A program made the translations under genes and the position numbers. A stretch of DNA of 64,000 bases, from contig MGAF01000026.1 of the NCBI GenBank assembly GCA_001789635.1, positions 5,055 to 69,054 on the forward strand, given 5' to 3'. This DNA is from Candidatus Roizmanbacteria bacterium RIFCSPLOWO2_01_FULL_35_13 (lineage in GTDB: Bacteria > Patescibacteriota > Microgenomatia > UBA1406 > GWC2-37-13). The notes below the pieces were generated by a model. It made no database searches, was not told the DNA's origin, and worked only from the letters and a program-made list of their open reading frames with translations. Positions 3,366 to 60,366 of the stretch are shown piece after piece (the first letter of the stretch is position 1; the number at the start of each line of letters is the position of its first letter).

Positions 3366-3789
3366 TGGTGGAGGTGCCGGGAATTGAACCCGGGTCCGGA
3401 AGGGCCATTTTAAAAATGTTTAGGTAGAGATAGATTATTTAAATTAAATTCAAATGACAAATAATCAAATGTCAAATGAACGACGATTGATGTTTTTTTG
3501 ACTAATTCGTCAATCGTAAACACGAATTTCGCCTCACCTTAATTGGTTTATCTCTTAATTAAGTTGAACTAAGGGAAACTTAATCAGAGGATCTCAAAGT
3601 TTAGCCTGCGTAAACGAAGGCCTGCTTTTGAGCATATTGGGCAGCAATTACGCCTTCCAATTGCTCTCTAGCGAACGCTCTAAGATCAGCAAAAATATCA
3701 TTCTTTGCTGTTGATTTTTCTGTTTAACGGACAGGTCCGCTCTACCGATTTTTAAAAGTGCATGCTTTCCGTCGATTCCTTTCACCCCC
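3366..3789 (-). ncRNA. ssrA: tmRNA (SsrA), about 424 nt
   Basis: The minus strand starts GGGGGTGAAAGGAATCGACGG and ends ..CCGGGTTCAATTCCCGGCACCTCCACCA. It has a 7-bp acceptor stem with G3-U70, a T-arm and a CCA end. smpB lies immediately upstream on the same strand. Confidence 0.9.
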
Positions 3790-13243: not shown

Positions 13244-13640
13244 TAGTAGCTAGTGTTTAGTCGTTAAAAATATGAAATCCTATAAAGAGTTGATTGTCTG
13301 GCAAAAAGCAATAAGCTTAACTGAATTAATCTATAAAACTACTTGGAATTTTCCGAAGGCAGAGATTTACGGATTGACTTCTCAAATAAGAAGATGCTCT
13401 GTTGCTATTCCTTCAAATATTGCAGAAGGATTTCACCGAGGTCATAGAAATGAATATATACAGTTTCTTAGAATTGCATATAGTTCAGGTGCTGAACTGG
13501 AAACTCAACTTTTAATTGCTTTAAGGATTAATTATCTAAAACAAGAAGAATTCGAAAAATTAAATAATCTTCTGCAAGAAATTATGAAAATGTTAAATGT
13601 ACTAATTTTTAAATTGACTGATTCTAAACACTAACCACTA
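13244..13640 (+). mobile_element. Four-helix-bundle gene cassette bounded by 17-bp inverted repeats
   Basis: TAGTAGCTAGTGTTTAG (13244-13260) matches the reverse complement of 13624-13640 (TAGTGGTTAGTGTTTAG) at 15/17 positions. It fills the gap between the cupredoxin stop and the copA ATG. Confidence 0.5.
13272..13634 (+). CDS. four-helix-bundle protein (23S rRNA intervening-sequence protein family)
   Basis: [10 protein letters not shown]...[35 protein letters not shown] is the typical family pattern. Confidence 0.85.
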
Positions 13641-15922
13641 TGCCCTACAAACTAACTAAGCGATCTTTTGTTATTAAAGGAATGCATTGCGCAAGTTGTG
13701 TGCGTGTGACAGAACGGGCACTCAAAAAAACACCCGGCGTTACTGACGCCGTGGTTAATCTTGCTACGCAAAAAGCAATGGTCACTTATGATGAAGATAA
13801 CTGCACACAAGAACAGCTTGCAAATTCTATAGCAAAAACCGGTTACACATTAGAACTTGAACAAAAAGGTGAAACAGTGATTCAGGAAGAAAAGAAAAAA
13901 GAATTGCAAATTTTAAGAAATAAGGTAGTTATAAGTCTCGGACTTGGCTTTTTAATATTCTGGGGAAGTTTTCCGGTTCTCATGGAGACTGCACCGGCAA
14001 TTCTACGCAACTTCTTTGTGCAGTTATTATTAGCTACTCCTGTCCAATTCTGGGCAGGGCAGGAATTTTACCGCGCAACTATTCCGGCTCTAAAACACAG
14101 GACTGCAAATATGGATACATTGGTCGCGTTGGGTACAACGGTCGCTTATTTTTATTCGGCTTTTGTTACTTTTTTTCCGCAAGTCATAATGAATTTAGGT
14201 ATGGATCCTATGCCATATTTTGATGTCGCAGTTATTGTCATTGGTCTAATACTTCTCGGAAGATATTTTGAAGCAAAAGCCAAAGCCGGAACTTCGCAGG
14301 CAATTAAAAAGTTAATCGGACTTCAGGCAAAAACAGCAAGAGTCCTTCGGCAAGCTCCCTCCTTCGCTGGAGCTTCGAAGGGCAGGCAGGATAAATTAAT
14401 TGAAGTTGATATTCCAATTGATCAAGTGCAGATTGGAGATATTATCCGGGTCAGGCCGGGAGAAAAAATTCCGGTTGACGGAATTATTACCGTTGGTGAA
14501 TCAAGTATAGATGAATCAATGATTACGGGAGAATCTATTCCAATTGACAAAACAAAAGGCGATACGGTTGTCGGAGCCACGATGAATAAATCTGGAACTT
14601 TTACCTATAAGGCTACCAAGGTCGGAAATGAAACAATGCTGGCGCAGATTATAAAACTGGTTGAAGAAGCCCAGGGCAGCAAAGCTCCTATTCAAAGATT
14701 GGCTGACGTTGTATCGTCTTACTTTGTTCCTGTTGTTATTATGCTGGCGTTTTTGACATTTGGAGTCTGGTATATCTTTGGTCCGCAGCCTTCATTTTTA
14801 TTTGCGATGCTCAATACAGTCGCCGTTCTGATTATTGCCTGTCCCTGTGCAATGGGTCTGGCTACGCCTACGGCGATTATGGTTGGCACAGGAATCGGGG
14901 CAGAGCATGGTATTCTCATAAAAGATGCCGAATCTTTAGAAACTGCACATAAGATTAATACAATTATTTTTGACAAGACCGGAACACTGACGAAAGGAAA
15001 ACCAGAAGTAACAGATATTATATCTTTGAATAAAACAAACAAAGATGAAATATTAAAACTAGCCGCATCTATTGAAAAAGGTTCTGAACATTCTTTAGCT
15101 GAAGCTATTGTTAAAGAAGCAGAAAAGCAAAAGCTTGTCCTGAACAAAGTTGAAGGATTTAAAGCAATTGCCGGATATGGAGTTGAGGGACTACTCGAAA
15201 AAAACCAATTGTTTTTAGGTAACAGAAGATTAATGAATAAAGAAAATGTTTCTGTAGCCTCATATAATAGTGAAATAACCCGATTAGAAGGAGGAGGTAA
15301 AACCGTAATGATGCTTGCAATAAATAGAAAACTTGCGGGTCTAATCGCCGTCGCAGATACAGTTAAAGATTCTGCAAAAGAAGGGGTTGCTCAACTTCAA
15401 AAACTTGGGATAGAGGTCGTAATGATAACAGGAGATAATGAGAAAACAGCACAAGCAATTGCAAAACAAGTGGGAGTAAACCGTGTTTTGGCTGAAGTAT
15501 TACCCGACCAAAAAGAACTAGAGATAAGAAAAATACAAAAAGAAGGAAAAAAAGTAGCAATGGTAGGAGATGGTATCAATGATGCTCCAGCCTTAACTGC
15601 TGCAGATGTTGGTATAGCGATGGGTACGGGTACTGACGTTGCAATAGAAGCGGCAGATATAACGCTTATCAATAAAGATCTGAAAAGTGTTGCTTCTGCG
15701 ATTGAACTTTCCAAAAAAACCATGCGGACTATAAAGTTAAATCTGATCTGGGCATTCGGTTATAATATTATTTTGATTCCTGTTGCTATGGGTATTCTTT
15801 ACCCGTTCTTTGGTATTTTATTGAATCCGATTCTGGCCTCAGTAGCTATGGCAACATCAAGCATTTCGGTTGTCTCAAATTCGTTATTGCCTAAGAGATT
15901 TAAAATAAATTATGACAATTAA
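13640..15922 (+). CDS. copA: copper-translocating P1B-type ATPase
   Basis: N-terminal HMA domain (GMHCASC), CPC motif ([11 protein letters not shown]), [15 protein letters not shown]. Confidence 0.95.
14344..14390 (+). repeat. GC-rich palindromic element inserted in frame in copA (encodes [13 protein letters not shown])
   Basis: CCTTCG-GCA-AGCTCC-[loop]-GGAGCT-T-CGAAGG. Homologous copies lie at 21771-21808 and 21061-21094. Confidence 0.7.
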
Positions 15923-18109: not shown

Positions 18110-18178
18110 GTCATTCTGGGGAGCGAAGCGACTCCAGAATCGTAGTTTAAACAACGATTCCGGACAAGCCGGAATGAC
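18110..18178 (+). repeat. GTCATTC..GAATGAC miniature inverted-repeat element (full copy)
   Basis: Terminal inverted repeat GTCATTCTGG/CCGGAATGAC. Internal hairpins TTCTGGGGAG..CTCCAGAA and ATTCCGG-ACAAG-CCGGAAT. Confidence 0.75.
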
Positions 18179-19882: not shown

Positions 19883-19942
19883 GTCATTCCCACGAAAGTG
19901 GGAATCCAGATTAAATAGATTCCGCATCAAGTGCGGAATGAC
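19883..19942 (+). repeat. GTCATTCC..GGAATGAC miniature inverted-repeat element (full copy)
   Basis: ATTCCCAC-GAAA-GTGGGAAT and ATTCCGCA-TCAAG-TGCGGAAT hairpins between the terminal inverted repeats. Confidence 0.75.
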
Positions 19943-20727: not shown

Positions 20728-20756
20728 TTTAATTTTTGAGCCTTATAGCCAGCCGA

Positions 20757-20785
20757 TTATCAACCGCTGCGGTTGAAAAAAAGGT
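20757..20785 (-). repeat. CCAACCTTTTTTTCAACCGCAGCGGTTGA repeat (copy 1)
   Basis: The reverse complement matches 32216-32244. Contains the hairpin CAACCGC-N-GCGGTTG. Confidence 0.7.
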
Positions 20786-20797
20786 TGGCAAAACAAC

Positions 20798-21733
20798 CTA
20801 TTTTGATTGCAAAAAATGTAATTTTTTAACAAGGGAAGGGACGAGAATTATCAATAGGGCTAGGCTAATTAATAGAGAAGTATTTATATCTTTCGGAAGA
20901 ATTCTTACTCCTGCAAATGAACCATTTAAAATGTTTCCAACAACAACCGCAAAAGTAAGAATTAATGAAACTAAACTGGCAGGCGCGTATTTAAGCGCTT
21001 TGTACCAGGTGAAGACGTAAAAGAAAAGAATTGTGCCGCCAATAAATACAATTGTTAATTGCTTGCCCGCCGAAGCTTCAGCGGAGGCGGGTTGATTAAA
21101 AATATTCAATAATAAAGGGCCTTTTCCAGTTAAAATAGTCGTTAACATTAATAAACTTCCGCCGATTCCCATCCGGAATAATCCAACTAATTCCGACGAA
21201 ACATTTTTTAAAACTTTTTTTGCCAAAATATTTTCCCCACTCCAAAGTAATGTGGCAGCTAAGACCATGATTTCGCCTCGACCCAAGGAAAGACTCAATT
21301 TTCCCAGGAAAAAATTGGCGATAATGATTAAGGTAAAACTAATAAGGTAAGTAATATTTAATTTTTCCTTGAGAAATATTACGGCCAAAATTGTTACCCA
21401 AATAAATAAAGATTTTTGAATTAAATTAGCGCTAATCGCTGGAATAAATTGCAATCCGGTGAAAAATAGATAGAAAGGTAAAGCTCCTCCGATTAAACCA
21501 ATTAAAGAAAGTAAAACAAACTGTTTTTTTGATAACTTTTTTAATTCATGCAATTTACCTGAAAATAAAAACAGAAGCAAAAACAAAATTCCTACATAAA
21601 AATTACGTGATGAAGTCAGGACTAAGGGAGAAATTTGCGATACAGAAATTTTTGAATAAAAAATTGCAATACCTGAAATTAGTGAGGCTAGGAATGCTAA
21701 TAAAACTCCTTTTGTAACATTGTTTTTTTGCAT
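20798..21733 (-). CDS. EamA/DMT family transporter
   Basis: About 10 hydrophobic helices in two EamA-like halves. ATG at 21733 is preferred. Confidence 0.7.
   Translation of the reverse strand: MQKNNVTKGVLLAFLASLISGIAIFYSKISVSQISPLVLTSSRNFYVGILFLLLFLFSGKLHELKKLSKKQFVLLSLIGLIGGALPFYLFFTGLQFIPAISANLIQKSLFIWVTILAVIFLKEKLNITYLISFTLIIIANFFLGKLSLSLGRGEIMVLAATLLWSGENILAKKVLKNVSSELVGLFRMGIGGSLLMLTTILTGKGPLLLNIFNQPASAEASAGKQLTIVFIGGTILFFYVFTWYKALKYAPASLVSLILTFAVVVGNILNGSFAGVRILPKDINTSLLISLALLIILVPSLVKKLHFLQSK
21061..21094 (-). repeat. GC-rich palindromic element inserted in frame in the EamA gene (encodes QPASAEASAGKQ)
   Basis: The coding-strand CCGCCTCCGCTGAAGCTTCGGCGGGCAAGC matches the copA element at 24/30 positions, in the same reading frame. 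Confidence 0.65.
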
Positions 21734-21753: not shown

Positions 21754-21874
21754 TCACTCGTGATCCCTTCTCTCCCACCTTCGCTAAAGCTTCGGACGGG
21801 CACGCCTGCTTGCGCTTCCTTGCCCCTCAAAGTCTGAAAGACGAAGTGGGGTCGGAGAGTCACCTCACTCGTGA
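21754..21874 (+). repeat. About 100-bp GC-rich element flanked by the 10-bp direct repeat TCACTCGTGA
   Basis: TCACTCGTGA occurs at 21754-21763 and 21865-21874. The interior contains CTCCCACCTTCGCTAAAGCTTCGGACGGGCA (the copA-element family) and CGAAGTGGGG. Confidence 0.55.
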
Positions 21875-32172: not shown

Positions 32173-32215
32173 TGAGATATTATAACAGATTAACTATTTA
32201 AGTTGTTATACCAAC

Positions 32216-32244
32216 CTTTTTTTCAACCGCAGCGGTTGAAATTT
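32216..32244 (+). repeat. CCAACCTTTTTTTCAACCGCAGCGGTTGA repeat (copy 2)
   Basis: Identical to the reverse complement of 20757-20785. Confidence 0.7.
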
Positions 32245-32261
32245 AAGTTGTGGTAAGGCTT

Positions 32262-33089
32262 TTAAGTGTGGAGCTTTTGGGACTTTTTTCTCAAAAATAA
32301 TAAATAGATTATTAGTATGTAAATACCCATGATTGCTAATTTTATGAAACTAAATTGCTGCTCAAGGCCAAAGATATTTTTGACAAAATGGCCTATAAAC
32401 GATGACTTTTCGGGTAAAAAAGTTAACTTCATAGGGAGAATATTTGCAAGATTAATATCAAAGTACACTTCGAACAATTCTGTAAATCCATTTTTTACAA
32501 AAGAAGCGCCTAAAATTACAATTAGATATTCGGTTATTTTAAAAACTTTACTGATCGGGAATTTTAAATAAGCGAGAAACGTTAAAACTCCAAGAACTGA
32601 TGAAAGTGCAAATCCTACAAATAGTCCTGCAAGATTTTCCATAAATTTGGAAAAAAGAGAGGTGGTAGCAGTGAACAGGGCAATCTCAAAGCCTTCCCTG
32701 ATAATAAAAAAAACAATAGTCAGGAATAAAGATATATCAAAGATATTTTTCTGCAATTTTTGGTGTGCGTCAATGATTGTCTTCGATCGTTTTAAGACAA
32801 AAAAATTATGTAAAGAAAAGATTACATAGGCGATGAAAAATCCGGAAAATATCATGAGGTATCCTTCGAGCAGGTCGGCATTTTTTTCGGTAAGGATTTC
32901 CCTGGCTTTATCTCCAAGCAGAAAAGTTGTGATCGGTAGCATGAAGGATATAGCTATTCCAATAATACTGGCCAGGACAATTTCTTTTTCTCTATGTATT
33001 TTTAGTTTTCTGGATATGCCAAGAAAAACGCCAATGATGAGAAAAACCTCAAGGAATTCACGCAGTGAAATCACCAAAGTTGTCAACAT
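32262..33089 (-). CDS. FTR1-family iron permease
   Basis: Two RExxE-type motifs (LREFLEV, IREGFEI) in TM helices. Confidence 0.75.
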   Translation of the reverse strand: MLTTLVISLREFLEVFLIIGVFLGISRKLKIHREKEIVLASIIGIAISFMLPITTFLLGDKAREILTEKNADLLEGYLMIFSGFFIAYVIFSLHNFFVLKRSKTIIDAHQKLQKNIFDISLFLTIVFFIIREGFEIALFTATTSLFSKFMENLAGLFVGFALSSVLGVLTFLAYLKFPISKVFKITEYLIVILGASFVKNGFTELFEVYFDINLANILPMKLTFLPEKSSFIGHFVKNIFGLEQQFSFIKLAIMGIYILIIYLLFLRKKSQKLHT

Positions 33090-33205: not shown

Positions 33206-34324
33206 ATGTATGATCCTCGAGTCAAGAAAGTAAGGGAGACATTAGCGGAAAAAAATATTGATTCTTTATTGGTTTCAAATTTCTACAATATTTTTTACCT
33301 GACAGGATTCAAAACTCTTACTACCGATGAGAGGGAAGCTTTTATTTTGATAACAAAGAATAGTGTCTACCTTTTTTCTGATGAACGATATATTTCAAAG
33401 AATTTCCCTGCCTCGCCGGCAGGCAGGCAATTACCAATTTCTAATTTCCAATGTAGATTAATCGAACCGGGGAAGGGATTGATTTTTCATCTGCAGGAAA
33501 TCATTAAGAGTGAACAGATAAAAACTCTGGGATTTGAAGCAGAAGATTTAAAATATTCAGAGTATCAAAAAATAAAGGAATTTTTGGGAAATGTTAATCT
33601 AACTTCAACAGACAGATTAATCATAACCATCCGTGAAATAAAAGATCAACAAGAAATAGATTTGGTTGAAAAAGCTTGTGAGATTGGAGATCAGTGTCTA
33701 TCGGACATAATCAAAATTATTAAATTTGGTGTTTCGGAAAAAGAAATTGCGTTCAAGATGGAGATGTGGATTAAAGAGAAAGGTTATGATATCTCGTTTG
33801 ATCCGATTGTGGCGATCGATGCCAACTCTGCAGTTGCTCATTACAATACCAAAACCGGAGAGGGAAAAATTAAGAACGGTTCGGTTATACTTTTGGATTT
33901 CGGGGTTAAGTATAAAGACTATCTTTCCGATATGACGCGGATGGTTTTTTTTGGAAAGTCAAACAATGAAGTAGAAAACGCATATCAAGTTTTATTGAAT
34001 GCACAGGAAAAAACAGTTGAAAAAGTCGCAGATTTTGATTTTTTAAAAGATATTGATAATTTTTGCCGAAAACAGATAACTGACAGCCGATTACCAAATT
34101 ATCCTCACTCTACCGGTCACGGGGTAGGACTTGAAATACACGAATATCCAAAAGTTTCTTTTAACTCTCCTGACCGAAAGATTATAGGACAGGTTATAAC
34201 TATTGAACCCGGAGTTTATTTTCCCGGTAAATTCGGAATGAGAGTGGAGGATATGGTAGTAATCGACAAAGACTTAAAACCAAAAATCCTGACAAAATTC
34301 CCAAAGACTTTATTGATTATTTAA
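33206..34324 (+). CDS. Xaa-Pro aminopeptidase (M24B)
   Basis: HSTGHGVGLEIHEYP, and VEDMVVI near the C-terminus. Confidence 0.85.
   Translation: MYDPRVKKVRETLAEKNIDSLLVSNFYNIFYLTGFKTLTTDEREAFILITKNSVYLFSDERYISKNFPASPAGRQLPISNFQCRLIEPGKGLIFHLQEIIKSEQIKTLGFEAEDLKYSEYQKIKEFLGNVNLTSTDRLIITIREIKDQQEIDLVEKACEIGDQCLSDIIKIIKFGVSEKEIAFKMEMWIKEKGYDISFDPIVAIDANSAVAHYNTKTGEGKIKNGSVILLDFGVKYKDYLSDMTRMVFFGKSNNEVENAYQVLLNAQEKTVEKVADFDFLKDIDNFCRKQITDSRLPNYPHSTGHGVGLEIHEYPKVSFNSPDRKIIGQVITIEPGVYFPGKFGMRVEDMVVIDKDLKPKILTKFPKTLLII
33406..33453 (+). repeat. In-frame composite insertion in the M24 peptidase gene: GC-rich palindrome plus heptamer array (encodes PASPAGRQLPISNFQ)
   Basis: CTGCC-TCGCC-GGCAG, then AATTTCT AATTTCC. 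The GGCAGGCAATTA end matches the EamA copy (GGCAAGCAATTA). Confidence 0.6.
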
Positions 34325-49892: not shown

Positions 49893-52800
49893 CTATTTTT
49901 TATTTTCATCCGGTTTTTTTGCTTCAGATTCTTCTCCGGCTGGATTTTGAGCATTTTCCCTAGTTGGTTTGCTTTCGGCAGATTTTTCTTCCGGTTCTTT
50001 TATTTCCATTTCTTCTTTCATCTCCATAACTTTTTCCTGTTCTTCGGCTTTGGGCTTATCAACATCGATAAATTCTTCCTCTTTCTTTTCTTCGACTTCT
50101 TCTTTTATTTCCTGTTCTTTTGTCTGAAGCTCTTCGACTTCTTTGGCGGCTTCGAGTTTGGCTTTCAGATAGACCATTAATTGTTCACCCTTCAAATTAT
50201 TAATTAAGAATATGGGTAGAATATAACCGATATCATCCAATCCCTGTTGTTTTATTTCAGGAGAATCCGAAACTAGTTTATTAAGAACATTAGTAATAAA
50301 GACAACATCCTGGCCGACCCATTGATCCCTGGATTTGATGATATCGGAAACAGGCACCTCGCCTCTGACATACTGGTCTTTCCACATTTTTTTAACCTGT
50401 TCATACTCATCAAGCGAGACAGAGGCCGGAACGGAAATCATAGATTCGACGTGTTTTTCCGGCTCAGTCACCATCGGTATCTGGTTATTGACGATTTTTT
50501 GCAGATCTTTTTCTTTAATATTTTCTTTTTGCAGAATCTGTCTCACGGTATCTTTGGAAGTCTTGAGGTTATTGACTGCAGTATTGATAACCCTGGTAAC
50601 TTTTTCTTTCTCAATACCTGTTTGAGTTGAGATATTATTGATTGAAGTCGACATTGGCTGGTTGATATTTTCCGTAAAGACGTTGAGAATTTTAGTTACC
50701 TGGCCAGCCTGCAGATTAGTCTGTTGTTCCAGTTGTTTGATAAACGTGCGATCGCTTGAGATGCTTGATAATAAAGTTTTCATTACTATTGTTGTTTTTT
50801 CAACCGGAAGTCCTGACTGAGATGCAATCATATTAACTACAGTTTCTTTTTCCCCAGTGGATGTAGAAGGTATGGCAGATAGTGTTGTTTGTATAACTTC
50901 CCTGACCTTTTCTTTCGTAACTCCAGTTTGGGTTGAGATATTGTTTATAGATGTCTCAAGTGGCTGATTGAGATTTTGAGTGTAGGTATTCAGAATATTG
51001 CTAATCTGGCTTATAGGAAGATTAGTTTGTTTCTCAATTTGTTTGACAAAGGTCTGGCTCTTTGAAACGCTGTTGATCATTGACTGAGTAATTGGAGCTT
51101 CTCTAGTTAATGATGTGGCAACAGTTGAGAGGATTTTTTCAACCCGTTCTACCGTAACCTGTTCTTTAACAGCAATATTATTAACAAGTTGCGACTGTCT
51201 TAGGTTGTTAACTGCGGTATTTATTACTTCTCTGACCTTTTCTTTCTCAACTTTAGTTTGAGAAGCAATATTGTTTACAGAAGTTGTTATAGGTTGGTTG
51301 ATGTTTTGAGTAAAGCTGTTAAGAATTGTTTTTACCTGGCTTGCCGGCAGATTAGTCTGTTTTTCCAGCTCTTTGACAAATGTATTATCAGTGGAAGCGT
51401 TTGATAACAGGGTTTTTGTTATAGAATTTACCTTTTCTACCGGGATTCCTGTCTGAGTTGAAATTGAAGTTGTAACTGTTTCTTTTTCATGATCAGTAAC
51501 TGCCGTAGAAATTGAGGAGAGGATTTTTTCAACATTTTGCGTTGTAACCTGTTCTTTTGTAGCAATTTTGTCAACCAGCTGGGATTGGCGAACGACATTA
51601 GTTGTGTTTTGAATAATACTTGAGACTTTTTCTTTGGTAACACCTGTTTGATTGGCTACATTTTGCAGTATGTTAGATACCGGCTGGGACATATTCTGAC
51701 TGAAAGAATTGAGCACTGACTGTACTTTTGTCTGAGGAGTCTGGGTAATCTGGGAGATTGATTGTGTCATATTATTATTGTTGGACACAGACTGCATAAA
51801 GGAAGAAGTCACTGACTGGACTTTTTCGGTCGGAATATTTACTTTGACCGATACAAGATGGGTTACCGGAACAGATTGAGTTGTTGTCTTTAGCATCTCT
51901 TCCCGTCTCTGCAGCTGTTCGACTTTTGAAGTGGAAATGGAAGAAAGAACCTGTTTGGCGGTTTTATCCTCTTTAACTGCCCGGCTGAACAGTTCGGATC
52001 TGATATTCATATATTTTTGCCGTTCGGTCGGGGTCTCGGCCTTCATCGGATTCTGCAGGAAATTAATATTTTTAGTTATGGTTTCGTTATTCTGTTTATT
52101 AGTCTCGAATCTGGCTATATCAGTAAGTTTGGACGCTGAGAATTGCATTGAGCGTGTAATATCTTCGGTCCTGGTTCTTTTGATTTCTTCGGTTGTTTCA
52201 AGTTTTGTTACAGTCCGCATCCGGTCGTCTCTGGGAATCTGCATGGCTGTTCCTGTAGACAAACCTGAAGGAGCAGGGATAGGAACCGGTCCCGGGCCAA
52301 ACGGAGTCGATCCACCCCGCATTTGGTCGTACATCGATAACAAAATATTTTTGGTTGCATAGATTCCGTCACAGCAGTAATCCCTGAAGATTCTTAGCAG
52401 CCACCACGGGAATATTGTAACCGCCCAAAGCATGACTAGTGCAATTATGTATTCGGCATAAGTATCCGTGTAGTTAGATGAGTTTAAAAGATCCAATTTT
52501 TGTGCAGGGCCTCCATAAAGAATATTAATAGTAGTGGGATAGACAAAGCCTTCTATCTTGTTGGCGCGGGAAAAATCAAAATTATAGGGAATATGAGATG
52601 GAGAGCCCCAAATTGCAGCGAGTCCCCCCAGGAATAGTCCAAAAAGAGGACCGTAAAAAACCCACTGGAAAAAGACTCCGATCCAGATCCATCCGGCATT
52701 CCTGATAAAAACAAAAGGCATGAGCAGGGCCAAAAATGGTGAAACAAAAAGCAGCAGCCAGAGAACCACTTTTCTTAAAATAAACATGATGCCGACCATA

Positions 52801-60339: not shown

Positions 60340-60366
60340 GTCATTCCCATGAAAATGGGAATCCAG
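60340..60366 (+). repeat. Solo half-copy of the GTCATTCC element
   Basis: GTCATTCCCAT-GAAA-ATGGGAATCCAG parallels 19883-19908. Confidence 0.7.

Follow-up and report, generated by a model that had tools for sequence, protein, structure and literature searches.

We have studied a short GC-rich hairpin that lies in frame within copA, the gene for a copper-exporting P1B-type ATPase, in 64,000 nucleotides of the uncultivated, ultra-small Candidatus Roizmanbacteria bacterium RIFCSPLOWO2_01_FULL_35_13 (contig MGAF01000026.1); this whole stretch is termed the window. The hairpin proves to be a copy of a repeat family with a 31-nt consensus and a 30-nt variant, which we call family-1. Family-1 is probably a non-autonomous mobile hairpin that often targets the loops of other hairpins, and that survives within genes only where its length is a multiple of three nucleotides (3n), its frame is free of stop codons and its place is at the protein surface, and is translated there. 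What we can observe directly is the presence or absence of the unit at orthologous sites, a family with defined boundaries, covariation in its stem, copies in frame, an enrichment of the 3n variant in open frames, nesting of hairpins within hairpins, and a surface-loop location on alignment and structural model.

The insert in CopA

The host of the insert is the following gene.

13640 to 15922, + strand: copA, 760-aa copper-exporting P1B-type ATPase

A Candidatus Roizmanbacteria genome bin contains a copper-translocating P-type ATPase with 100% identity to the product of this open reading frame (ORF). The precomputed Pfam domains of the product are HMA, E1-E2_ATPase and Hydrolase, and it matches PDB 3J09, the CopA of Archaeoglobus fulgidus, with E = 9e-196. 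A preliminary description of this DNA had drawn a GC-rich hairpin at 14344-14390, in frame within the ORF, and both the sequence (CCTTCGGCAAGCTCCCTCCTTCGCTGGAGCTTCGAAGGGCAGGCAG) and the position are exactly as it gave them. The contrast in base composition that it reported is also present: the 30-nt stretch 14359-14388, offset by 1 nt from the insert, has 63% GC, against 39% for the copA gene and 35% for the window. The minimum free energy fold of the 47-nt segment is the hairpin as drawn, with a free energy of −22.9 kcal/mol. When compared with composition-matched shuffles this corresponds to z = −1.5, and 17 of 200 shuffles were equally stable. As the 47-nt hairpin and the other copies reach z values of only −1.3 to −2.1 against shuffles, we have not used the stability of the fold as evidence.

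CopA sequences had been expected to run from AKTARV straight into a short xRDGxExE(I/V)P segment, and this is what most homologues do. The alignment with A. fulgidus CopA (3J09) has a 14-residue gap exactly at the insert (RDGK--EIAVP), so that homologous residues are lacking at this position in an unrelated orthologue. Of the 120 closest CopA homologues (73-82% identity), 62 are 740 aa long, more than have any other length, and the 740-aa homologues in the alignment shown read AKTARVxR-[DG][GK]K-E[IV]D[IL]PI, i.e., they do not carry the insert. The 14 residues are missing from most homologues at 75-82% identity. Since A. fulgidus CopA and most of the close homologues are without these residues, unrelated lineages lack the insert. 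Judged by these alignments, the copA insert is a lineage-specific in-frame insertion.

The 14 extra residues are in the actuator domain, the region to which the insert had been assigned at the outset, where they occupy the tip of its first beta-hairpin. In an AlphaFold2 model (mean pLDDT 69), insert residues 239-252 come between strands 232-238 and 253-259, with pLDDT below 50 and no secondary structure. The location is thus predicted to be a disordered surface loop at the tip of the actuator-domain beta-hairpin. There are at least four assemblies of the strain, one each from NCBI and ENA and two from JGI samples. The element is unchanged in the three further assemblies (ENA and the two from JGI), whose contigs are 99.9-100% identical to the window across it; four assemblies agree on the element, and therefore it is no assembly artefact.

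Comparison with relatives divides the insert into two layers. Here and below, L-numbers label comparison loci or genomes, and P-numbers label comparison proteins.

14358 to 14387, + strand: family-1 30-nt hairpin element CCTCCTTCGCTGGAGCTTCGAAGGGCAGGC, extra DNA relative to L004 and L006, encoding (P)SFAGASKGR
14345 to 14357, + strand: 5′ half of an older insertion, CTTCGGCAAGCTC, encoding LRQA (from comparison with L004, L006 and L007)
14388 to 14398, + strand: 3′ half of the older insertion, AGGATAAATTA, encoding QDKL (from the same comparison)

The states of the site are as follows, with slashes setting off the 30-nt unit.

L007 (canonical): GTG GTA AGA GGC GGA AAA GAA
L006 and L004 (LRQAQDKL, +12 nt): GTC CTT CGA CAA GCT CAG GAT AAA TTA
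Window: GTC CTT CGG CAA GCT C / CC TCC TTC GCT GGA GCT TCG AAG GGC AGG C / AG GAT AAA TTA

The canonical sequence of L007 is GTAAGAGGCGGAAAA (VRGGK), and L006 and L004 have CTTCGACAAGCTCAGGATAAATTA (LRQAQDKL) in its place. The empty site in L004 and L006 reads GCTC/AGGAT, and the window is this state plus one exact 30-nt unit. The boundary of the unit is ambiguous by 1 nt, the alternative being 14357-14386 (CCCTCC...CAGG). The ends of the 30-nt difference match the family-1 boundaries set from 100 other copies. The ends seen in copA are therefore the independently defined ends of the family, from which it follows that the unit entered or left as a discrete piece. In the hairpin drawn earlier, the 12 bp form between the older remnant CCTTCGGCAAGCTCC and the 3′ part of the 30-nt unit. 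Because its arms come from two layers, the 47-nt hairpin is a composite; although the fold does form, the mobile unit is the 30 nt at 14358-14387. The loop motif TTCGRCAAGCTCA of the older insertion is also found in intergenic hairpins of other genomes.

Copies of family-1 within and between genes

The 31-nt consensus of family-1 is CCCKCCTTCGCTAAAGCTTCGGMNGGGCAAG, and the 30-nt variant is this consensus minus one G. A logo of 100 copies reads CCC[T/G]CCT[T/C]CGCTAAAGCTTCGG[A/C]NGGGCA[A]G, with sharp boundaries beyond which the flanks are random; the positions that were not forced by the search pattern are 94-99% conserved. The architecture comprises a GC stem of 6 bp, in which a 1-nt bulge separates 4 bp from 2 bp, an invariant 14-nt loop TTCGCTAAAGCTTC and a short tail. 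Covariation is seen in the stem between the base before CC and the base before GGG (Fisher p = 1e-4 to 1e-6), T occurring with A in 38 of 67 copies, and G in 34 of 40 with C or, where the register is shifted, with G. The core CCTYCGCTNNAGCTTCG occurs exactly three times in the window (14361+, 21071− and 21778+), compared with a mean of 0.10 core matches in the shuffled window even when 2 mismatches are allowed. The density of copies in the window is about one per 20 kb.

In species-representative genomes an exact-pattern scan recorded at least 119 loci; about 4 random matches are expected if a genome of uniform composition is assumed. In metagenomes at least 120 loci were recorded with the pattern of the 30-nt variant. 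For both scans the locus counts are lower bounds and the proportions of taxa are rough, the taxon names being the labels on the deposited records. By record title, 45 of the 80 matches listed belong to lineages of the candidate phyla radiation (CPR)/Patescibacteria. The CPR lineages with family-1 are Parcubacteria, Paceibacteria, Saccharibacteria, Woesebacteria, Amesbacteria, Levybacteria, Gottesmanbacteria, Roizmanbacteria, Peribacteria, Berkelbacteria and Doudnabacteria. Other taxa among the matches listed include Gammaproteobacteria, Elusimicrobia, Bdellovibrionales, Bacteroidota, Acidobacteria, Planctomycetota and one Nanoarchaeia bin. Some of the non-CPR copies lie on long contigs, such as a 223-kb Lewinellaceae contig that carries its 16S operon; short non-CPR contigs are possibly mis-binned, and a few matches in high-GC genomes that lack the flanking CCC may be due to chance.

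The copies are mostly singletons. About 0.9 Mb of DNA flanking them contains only 10 additional copies, and the multi-copy loci noted are direct tandems. In L017, L042, L087, L107 and L113, several of which are labeled Gammaproteobacteria, the 31-mer lies within a longer repeat, cgaaattcgaatatcgaaattcgaaa-[element]-ggcaaattatttaaaat..ttgcttgccac, and this gammaproteobacterial composite unit appears to have been amplified locally. No Rfam 15 family matched the window or 18 loci at the gathering threshold. At E <= 10 there were only chance-level matches on the intergenic copy of the window (best E = 0.068), and none on the consensus copy. We searched the literature by sequence and by CPR repeat topics, and found no description of family-1. 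The suggestion that the phenomenon was undescribed for this kind of genome therefore stands for the CPR, but the family is not confined to these organisms and crosses phyla.

Two further copies lie in and beside a second gene of the window.

20798 to 21733, − strand: EamA/DMT transporter gene, 311 aa (PF00892)
21062 to 21091, − strand: family-1 30-nt copy CCCGCCTCCGCTGAAGCTTCGGCGGGCAAG within the EamA gene, in frame, encoding PASAEASAGK
21774 to 21804, + strand: family-1 31-nt intergenic copy CCCACCTTCGCTAAAGCTTCGGACGGGCACG, upstream of EamA (pattern match)

Both had been noticed in the preliminary description. The EamA copy is in frame and has the same reading phase as that in CopA, with 24 of 30 positions matching, as had been reported. 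Among the orthologues displayed, nearly all lack the peptide PASAEASAGK, two of them (P0121 and P0122) at 82% identity; P0123-125 have it, and P0127 has another insert (PVSPAGGY) at the same site. The EamA proteins of the window and L130 share 74% amino acid identity, with 70% identity of their nucleotides, and the codons for identical residues match in 42% of cases. The element itself is identical at 29 of 30 nt, with all ten third positions kept, and is the most conserved 10-codon window of the gene in this comparison (P ~3e-4). The intergenic copy sits in a longer imperfect hairpin that folds from about 21765-21858. In L131 the upstream gene overlaps the start of EamA, and there is no corresponding spacer.

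The ENA assembly has an 11-nt deletion and nearby mismatches in EamA (window ~21189-21210, against 13345-13355 of L001). The gene is there split into ORFs of 116 and 208 aa, which could be a population variant or pseudogene, or an assembly difference. We rejected this split as a sign of instability at the element, its cause being an 11-nt indel ~100 nt away.

A third gene had been thought to carry a truncated copy.

33407 to 33427, + strand: 21-nt palindrome CCTGCCTCGCCGGCAGGCAGG of a separate family, in frame in the M24/PepP gene (33206-34324), encoding PASPAGR

The segment is present, but as a truncated member of family-1 it had to be discarded, for it belongs to a separate family of 20-21-nt palindromes. 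That family also occurs in the CopA of L127, at the same actuator hairpin, and in intergenic copies elsewhere. The PASPAGR palindrome is missing from the nearest PepP orthologues (P0241 and others), and the loop is hypervariable. True family-1 copies are found at the same loop in the PepP of other CPR bacteria, encoding PSFAKAS[EG]GKQ (CCCTCCTTTGCCAAGGCTTCGGAGGGCAAG in L129). The copies of L129 and L132 are identical at 28 of 30 nt, against a background of 78%. Alignment of the CopA, EamA and PepP orthologues, which had been proposed as a check, shows the inserts to be missing from most or from the nearest of the relatives shown.

How often does family-1 lie within genes? The ORF context of the copies was judged from open frames and not from gene prediction. 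In genomes of at most 55% GC, 24 of 102 copies are within ORFs of at least 100 aa. The host proteins recognized by Pfam are CopA (at a second, independent site), DnaG primase, PNPase, LeuRS, GyrA, an N6 DNA methylase, topoisomerase I (TopA), a UvrD-type helicase-nuclease and a DUF2207 membrane protein. In-frame colonization of conserved genes, which had been postulated from the window, is thus general for family-1, extending over DnaG, GyrA, TopA, PNPase, LeuRS, CopA and PepP. The commonest frame of the in-gene copies encodes PS[FS]A[KE]AS[ED]G[QK], and is also that of the copA and EamA copies in the window. The three intragenic copies checked at the DNA level, i.e., those of copA, EamA and PepP of L129, are all 30 nt in length, and empty sites were seen for the copA and EamA copies.

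Of the 30-nt copies, 17 of 46 (37%, from the metagenome scan) are flanked on either side by at least 60 codons of open frame, compared with 10 of 76 for the 31-nt copies (13%, from the genome set; Fisher p = 0.003). The 30-nt copies in ORFs use five frames and both orientations (8 sense, 9 antisense). Enrichment of the 3n length together with mixed frames is as predicted by insertion at the DNA level followed by a filter at the level of translation. Intergenic copies are oriented 24 versus 15 with respect to flanking genes (p = 0.2). Orientation bias was therefore set aside as evidence for a role at the RNA level, as it is not significant intergenically and is absent for the 30-nt copies in ORFs.

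Between genes, family-1 recurs between tRNA genes and in an rRNA operon spacer. The largest cluster among neighboring ORFs is LeuRS (12 loci), and lepA is nearby in 7 loci. At the 5′ end of leuS, in at least six genomes (L025, L036, L047, L055, L063 and L093), the element is found within the first 8-13 codons, and the LeuRS N-terminus (MxxY[DN]HKKIExKW) is present on both sides of it. The duplication measures 25-39 nt, begins at the ATG and resembles a target-site duplication. The upstream copy of the N-terminus may be in frame or out of frame, or its end may overlap the real start codon. A duplication of this type was not seen at the copA, EamA or PepP sites. Does it come from staggered-cut integration, or from the rescue of an essential gene? 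We raise both only as candidate causes.

Hairpins are repeatedly found within other hairpins. The family-1 copy of the window lies within the older copA remnant, and the same remnant in L128 contains a 66-nt composite. In L132 PepP the family-1 copy itself contains a further 30-nt hairpin, immediately 5′ of its 3′ stem arm; family-1 lies within GTCATTCCCGC...GCGGGAATGAC hairpins on three contigs of one bin; and the intergenic copy of the window occupies its longer hairpin. Since nesting recurs in these five settings, hairpin loops look like preferred targets. Repeats of other kinds are present in the same proteins. About one quarter of the 120 CopA homologues have repeat-like peptides at six or more loop sites (VILNLFQDP..., VIARSKATKQS, VILSKRSEAEDL, RHSERSEES and LRPAQG), and the DNA of examples consists of GC-rich hairpins, such as GTCATTCCGAGCGAAGCGAGGAATC in L006 CopA and the composite of L128.

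Probable mobility and alternative explanations

The data fit best with family-1 as a mobile hairpin, in the following way. The hairpin unit is dispersed as a discrete piece with sharp ends, and is found repeatedly to have landed in the loops of pre-existing hairpins. In copA it would have landed inside the older small insertion at the tip of the actuator beta-hairpin. The copA copy is 30 nt in length and stop-free and forms a small hydrophilic surface loop, and would on this basis be transcribed, translated and tolerated by selection; the same filter would explain the copy in EamA, those in PepP of the CPR, and those in DnaG, GyrA, TopA, PNPase and LeuRS. The architecture suggests that the unit may be mobilized in trans by an enzyme recognizing single-stranded hairpins. 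To name an HUH/Y1-type transposase, or a route by a nuclease plus repair, would be a guess. There is no consistent target-site duplication at the three sites compared, where the flanks read GCTC/.../AGGA for copA, CAA/.../CAA for EamA and AGT/.../CAA for PepP of L129, the last judged by its own flanks only.

A number of points weigh against such mobility. We found no mobilizing gene: when the 1179 ORFs around 119 copies were clustered, all that emerged were housekeeping families (LeuRS, LepA, MurJ, EF-P and YchF). A scan of IMG/VR gave 0 family-1 matches, the PLSDB plasmids gave none, and the GenBank phages gave one weak match at chance level (E = 0.3); thus no vector of spread was found in those collections. 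The copies in the window differ mutually by about 20%, with no sign of recent activity there. The neighbor-joining tree of CopA is star-like, with 79-82% identity to everything, and does not give the order of the two insertions. The comparison of 30-nt with 31-nt copies sets two different collections against each other, and that the insert is translated is something we infer. Lastly, the conservation of the EamA element and the near-constant sequence across phyla point to constraint or function at the nucleotide level, as opposed to a purely selfish, decaying insert, with one strong pair (EamA) and one weak pair (PepP) as the measure of nucleotide-level conservation of copies.

As the main rival, the hairpin could be a functional cis-element, serving as a DNA- or RNA-binding or processing site for a conserved factor, with copies kept by selection; the intragenic copies would then be by-products, or would act in the mRNA (in pausing, stability or processing). 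We consider this doubtful as a full account, although it is compatible with mobility. The near-identity across CPR classes and other phyla, the covarying stem and the invariant loop speak for it, as do the EamA copy, conserved in all third positions as the foremost 10-codon window of its gene, and the recurrence between tRNA genes, in an rRNA spacer, at the leuS 5′ end (at least six genomes) and near lepA (7 loci). However, the intergenic copies have no significant orientation bias, the two orientations are equally represented among the 30-nt copies in ORFs, which argues against a role at the RNA level, and copies are present or absent at orthologous sites of close relatives. Moreover, the L129/L132 pair of PepP shows only weak excess conservation (28/30 against 78%), and there is no match to an Rfam family. 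A combination of the two is a tentative proposal that we rate as less likely than not: the hairpin would be an ultra-small module that spreads across phyla (possibly including DPANN archaea) via hairpin loops and is also under nucleotide-level selection within genes, for example as the recognition site of a conserved protein. Were this true, family-1 and its sister families (PAGRQ, GTCATTC...GAATC and LRQAQDKL) would systematically remodel the surface loops of the CPR core proteome.

Other explanations fare less well. Copies might be templated insertions (retro-copies or repair patches) made from a small RNA or DNA hairpin that is conserved and encoded by a master gene; constancy across phyla would then stem from selection acting on the master and not on the copies. 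Sharp constant ends that lack a consistent target-site duplication or terminal inverted repeats, and the same 31-mer in distant phyla, are what such a process could leave, and CPR genomes are rich in reverse transcriptases, for example those of diversity-generating retroelements. Yet no master locus or longer conserved context is seen around the 119 copies, there is no poly-A or other signature of retro-insertion, and the lineage-specific subvariants (the composite flanks in Gammaproteobacteria) look like local amplification. We regard this origin as unlikely. It is highly improbable that the insert is removed or skipped after transcription, whether by bypassing as for the mitochondrial byp elements or by excision at the RNA or protein level. 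GC-rich hairpins in coding regions are indeed bypassed in Magnusiomyces mitochondria (PMC8811140), but the intragenic copies examined are 3n and stop-free, and the 3n variant is enriched in ORFs. A bypassed segment would need no 3n constraint, so this enrichment in open frames argues against bypassing or splicing; in addition, the predicted disordered surface loop can accommodate the insert. Ordinary expansion of the loop by slippage or indel might be entertained because the surface loop tolerates length variation, several homologues having other inserts there, and because the hairpin is no more stable than shuffles. The insert nevertheless matches a sharply bounded family with hundreds of copies, and the element is identical in four independent assemblies, so that we give hardly any credence to loop expansion or to an artefact of assembly in place of a repeat element. 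A reading of the copies as DNA-uptake sequences was also rejected, as they are discrete insertions at low density.

Known repeats and other features of the window

Rickettsia palindromic elements (RPE) lie in frame in many unrelated conserved genes, where they add segments to the surface that are compatible with folding (PMC10969869). The analogy with these elements had been made in the preliminary description, and it holds for behavior. Both are non-autonomous palindromic repeats that have no known transposase and are also intergenic, and when the likeness was tested, family-1 was likewise found in frame in unrelated conserved genes at structurally tolerant sites. It does not hold for homology. 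RPE are ~100-150 bp in length, add tens of residues and occur in Rickettsia only (PMC10969869), whereas family-1 measures 30-31 nt, adds 10 residues and is found in the CPR and other phyla; with size and host as described, family-1 is set apart and is not a member.

Yeast mitochondrial GC clusters undergo changes in their loop regions, and merge and are shuffled into new clusters (PMC8811140), which parallels the nesting of family-1 in loops. They too are short GC-rich palindromes of an AT-rich genome, mostly intergenic, and in frame in a coding gene (var1). They differ in being organellar and in having AG/TAG terminal repeats that are read as target-site duplications, whereas family-1 is on bacterial chromosomal contigs and has no such repeats; the sequences are unrelated. 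Transposable elements of the miniature inverted-repeat type (MITEs) resemble family-1 in that they are non-autonomous and occasionally form in-frame fusions with host ORFs (PMC10969869). However, MITEs are 50-500 bp in length, and a parent insertion sequence is the source of their terminal inverted repeats and target-site duplications; family-1 is a single 31-nt hairpin with neither terminal inverted repeats nor consistent duplications. The RHE and double-hairpin elements of sponge and fungal mitochondria are also short hairpin repeats that invade genomes repeatedly, occasionally in rRNA and protein genes at sites of variable length (PMC2800124). In contrast to family-1 they are organellar, belong to other sequence families and are rarely in protein genes.

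REP/REPIN (repetitive extragenic palindromic) sequences share with family-1 the form of 20-40-nt imperfect GC-rich palindromes, many dispersed copies, and a conserved sequence with a covarying stem. REPs are extragenic, have a GTAG-type start, form inverted doublets, flank a RAYT (REP-associated tyrosine) gene and fall into species-specific families. By contrast 13-37% of family-1 copies are inside ORFs. Family-1 starts with CCC[T/G]CC, its copies are mostly singletons and its multi-copy loci direct tandems, and it crosses phyla. No recurrent neighbor other than housekeeping genes occurs among the 1179 ORFs around 119 copies, where neighboring ORFs only were considered. Family-1 is thus closest to RPE in behavior, and closest to yeast mitochondrial GC clusters and REP sequences in architecture; it is a member of none of these.

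The behavior of family-1 is established elsewhere; what appears to be new is the family itself, its tiny size, its spread across phyla and the scale on which it occurs in frame in CPR core proteins. CPR/Patescibacteria proteins are known for odd insertions and poor alignments, and part of this oddity is systematic, with several families of GC-rich hairpins lying in frame in surface loops of CopA, PepP, EamA, DnaG, GyrA, TopA, PNPase and LeuRS. This has consequences for gene calling, alignment, phylogenomics and structure prediction in CPR lineages. It is a second bacterial case of protein loop evolution driven by repeats, and far more widespread than that of RPE. The near-constancy of the 31 nt across phyla, together with one intragenic copy that resists synonymous decay, raises the question of the machinery that recognizes it.

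A second hairpin family of the window has the form GTCATTC-[variable palindrome]-GAATC, with copies at 18110-18141 (+), 18156-18178 (−), 19883-19907 (+), 19918-19942 (−) and 60340-60363 (+). Within intergenic spacers, four of the five form two close inverted pairs that resemble REPINs. The CopA of L006 (RHSERSEES) has a member of this family in frame, as have other homologues of CopA and PepP.

Beside copA there are indications of rearrangement. At 13272-13634, between a cupredoxin gene and copA, lies a gene for a four-helix bundle (PF05635 23S_rRNA_IVP, bAvd-like). No gene separates cupredoxin from copA in the relatives L004 and L006, and in L128 and L007 another gene stands between them (a peptide deformylase; an ORF with no Pfam match). 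The PF05635 gene looks like a cassette inserted in the copper operon. In the close relative L007 (1-4459), a copper-resistance cluster with a CsoR-like repressor, cupredoxin, CopA and others adjoins type IV secretion/conjugation genes (TraG-like, TrbL and TrbC/pilin). These conjugation neighbors, and the star-like CopA tree across Roizmanbacteria, Daviesbacteria and Levybacteria, suggest that the copper island may be horizontally mobile among Microgenomates.

An inverted pair of 62-nt repeats, 79% complementary, is formed by 20739-20800 and 32199-32260, with the hairpin TCAACCGCTGCGGTTGA flanked by A/T runs. One copy overlaps the 3′ end of EamA and comes immediately after that of a DUF6390 gene; the other is placed shortly ahead of the 3′ end of the ORF at 32262. 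The pair looks like a dispersed, terminator-like repeat. At ~2020-2240 there is a cluster of GC-rich hairpins with GUCUGAC-type loops (e.g., CACCGAGTCTGACTCGGTGG and GCGACGTCTGACGTCGC), set in a ~2-kb stretch between 1289 and the tmRNA gene at 3366-3789 that has one short ORF (2272-2589, 105 aa). The cluster had no Rfam match even at E <= 1, and may be an unannotated structured RNA or another cluster of repeats. Finally, three direct repeats of ~220 nt at 50566-51421, which are 61-72% identical and spaced by 306 and 330 nt, probably encode a repeat-domain protein.

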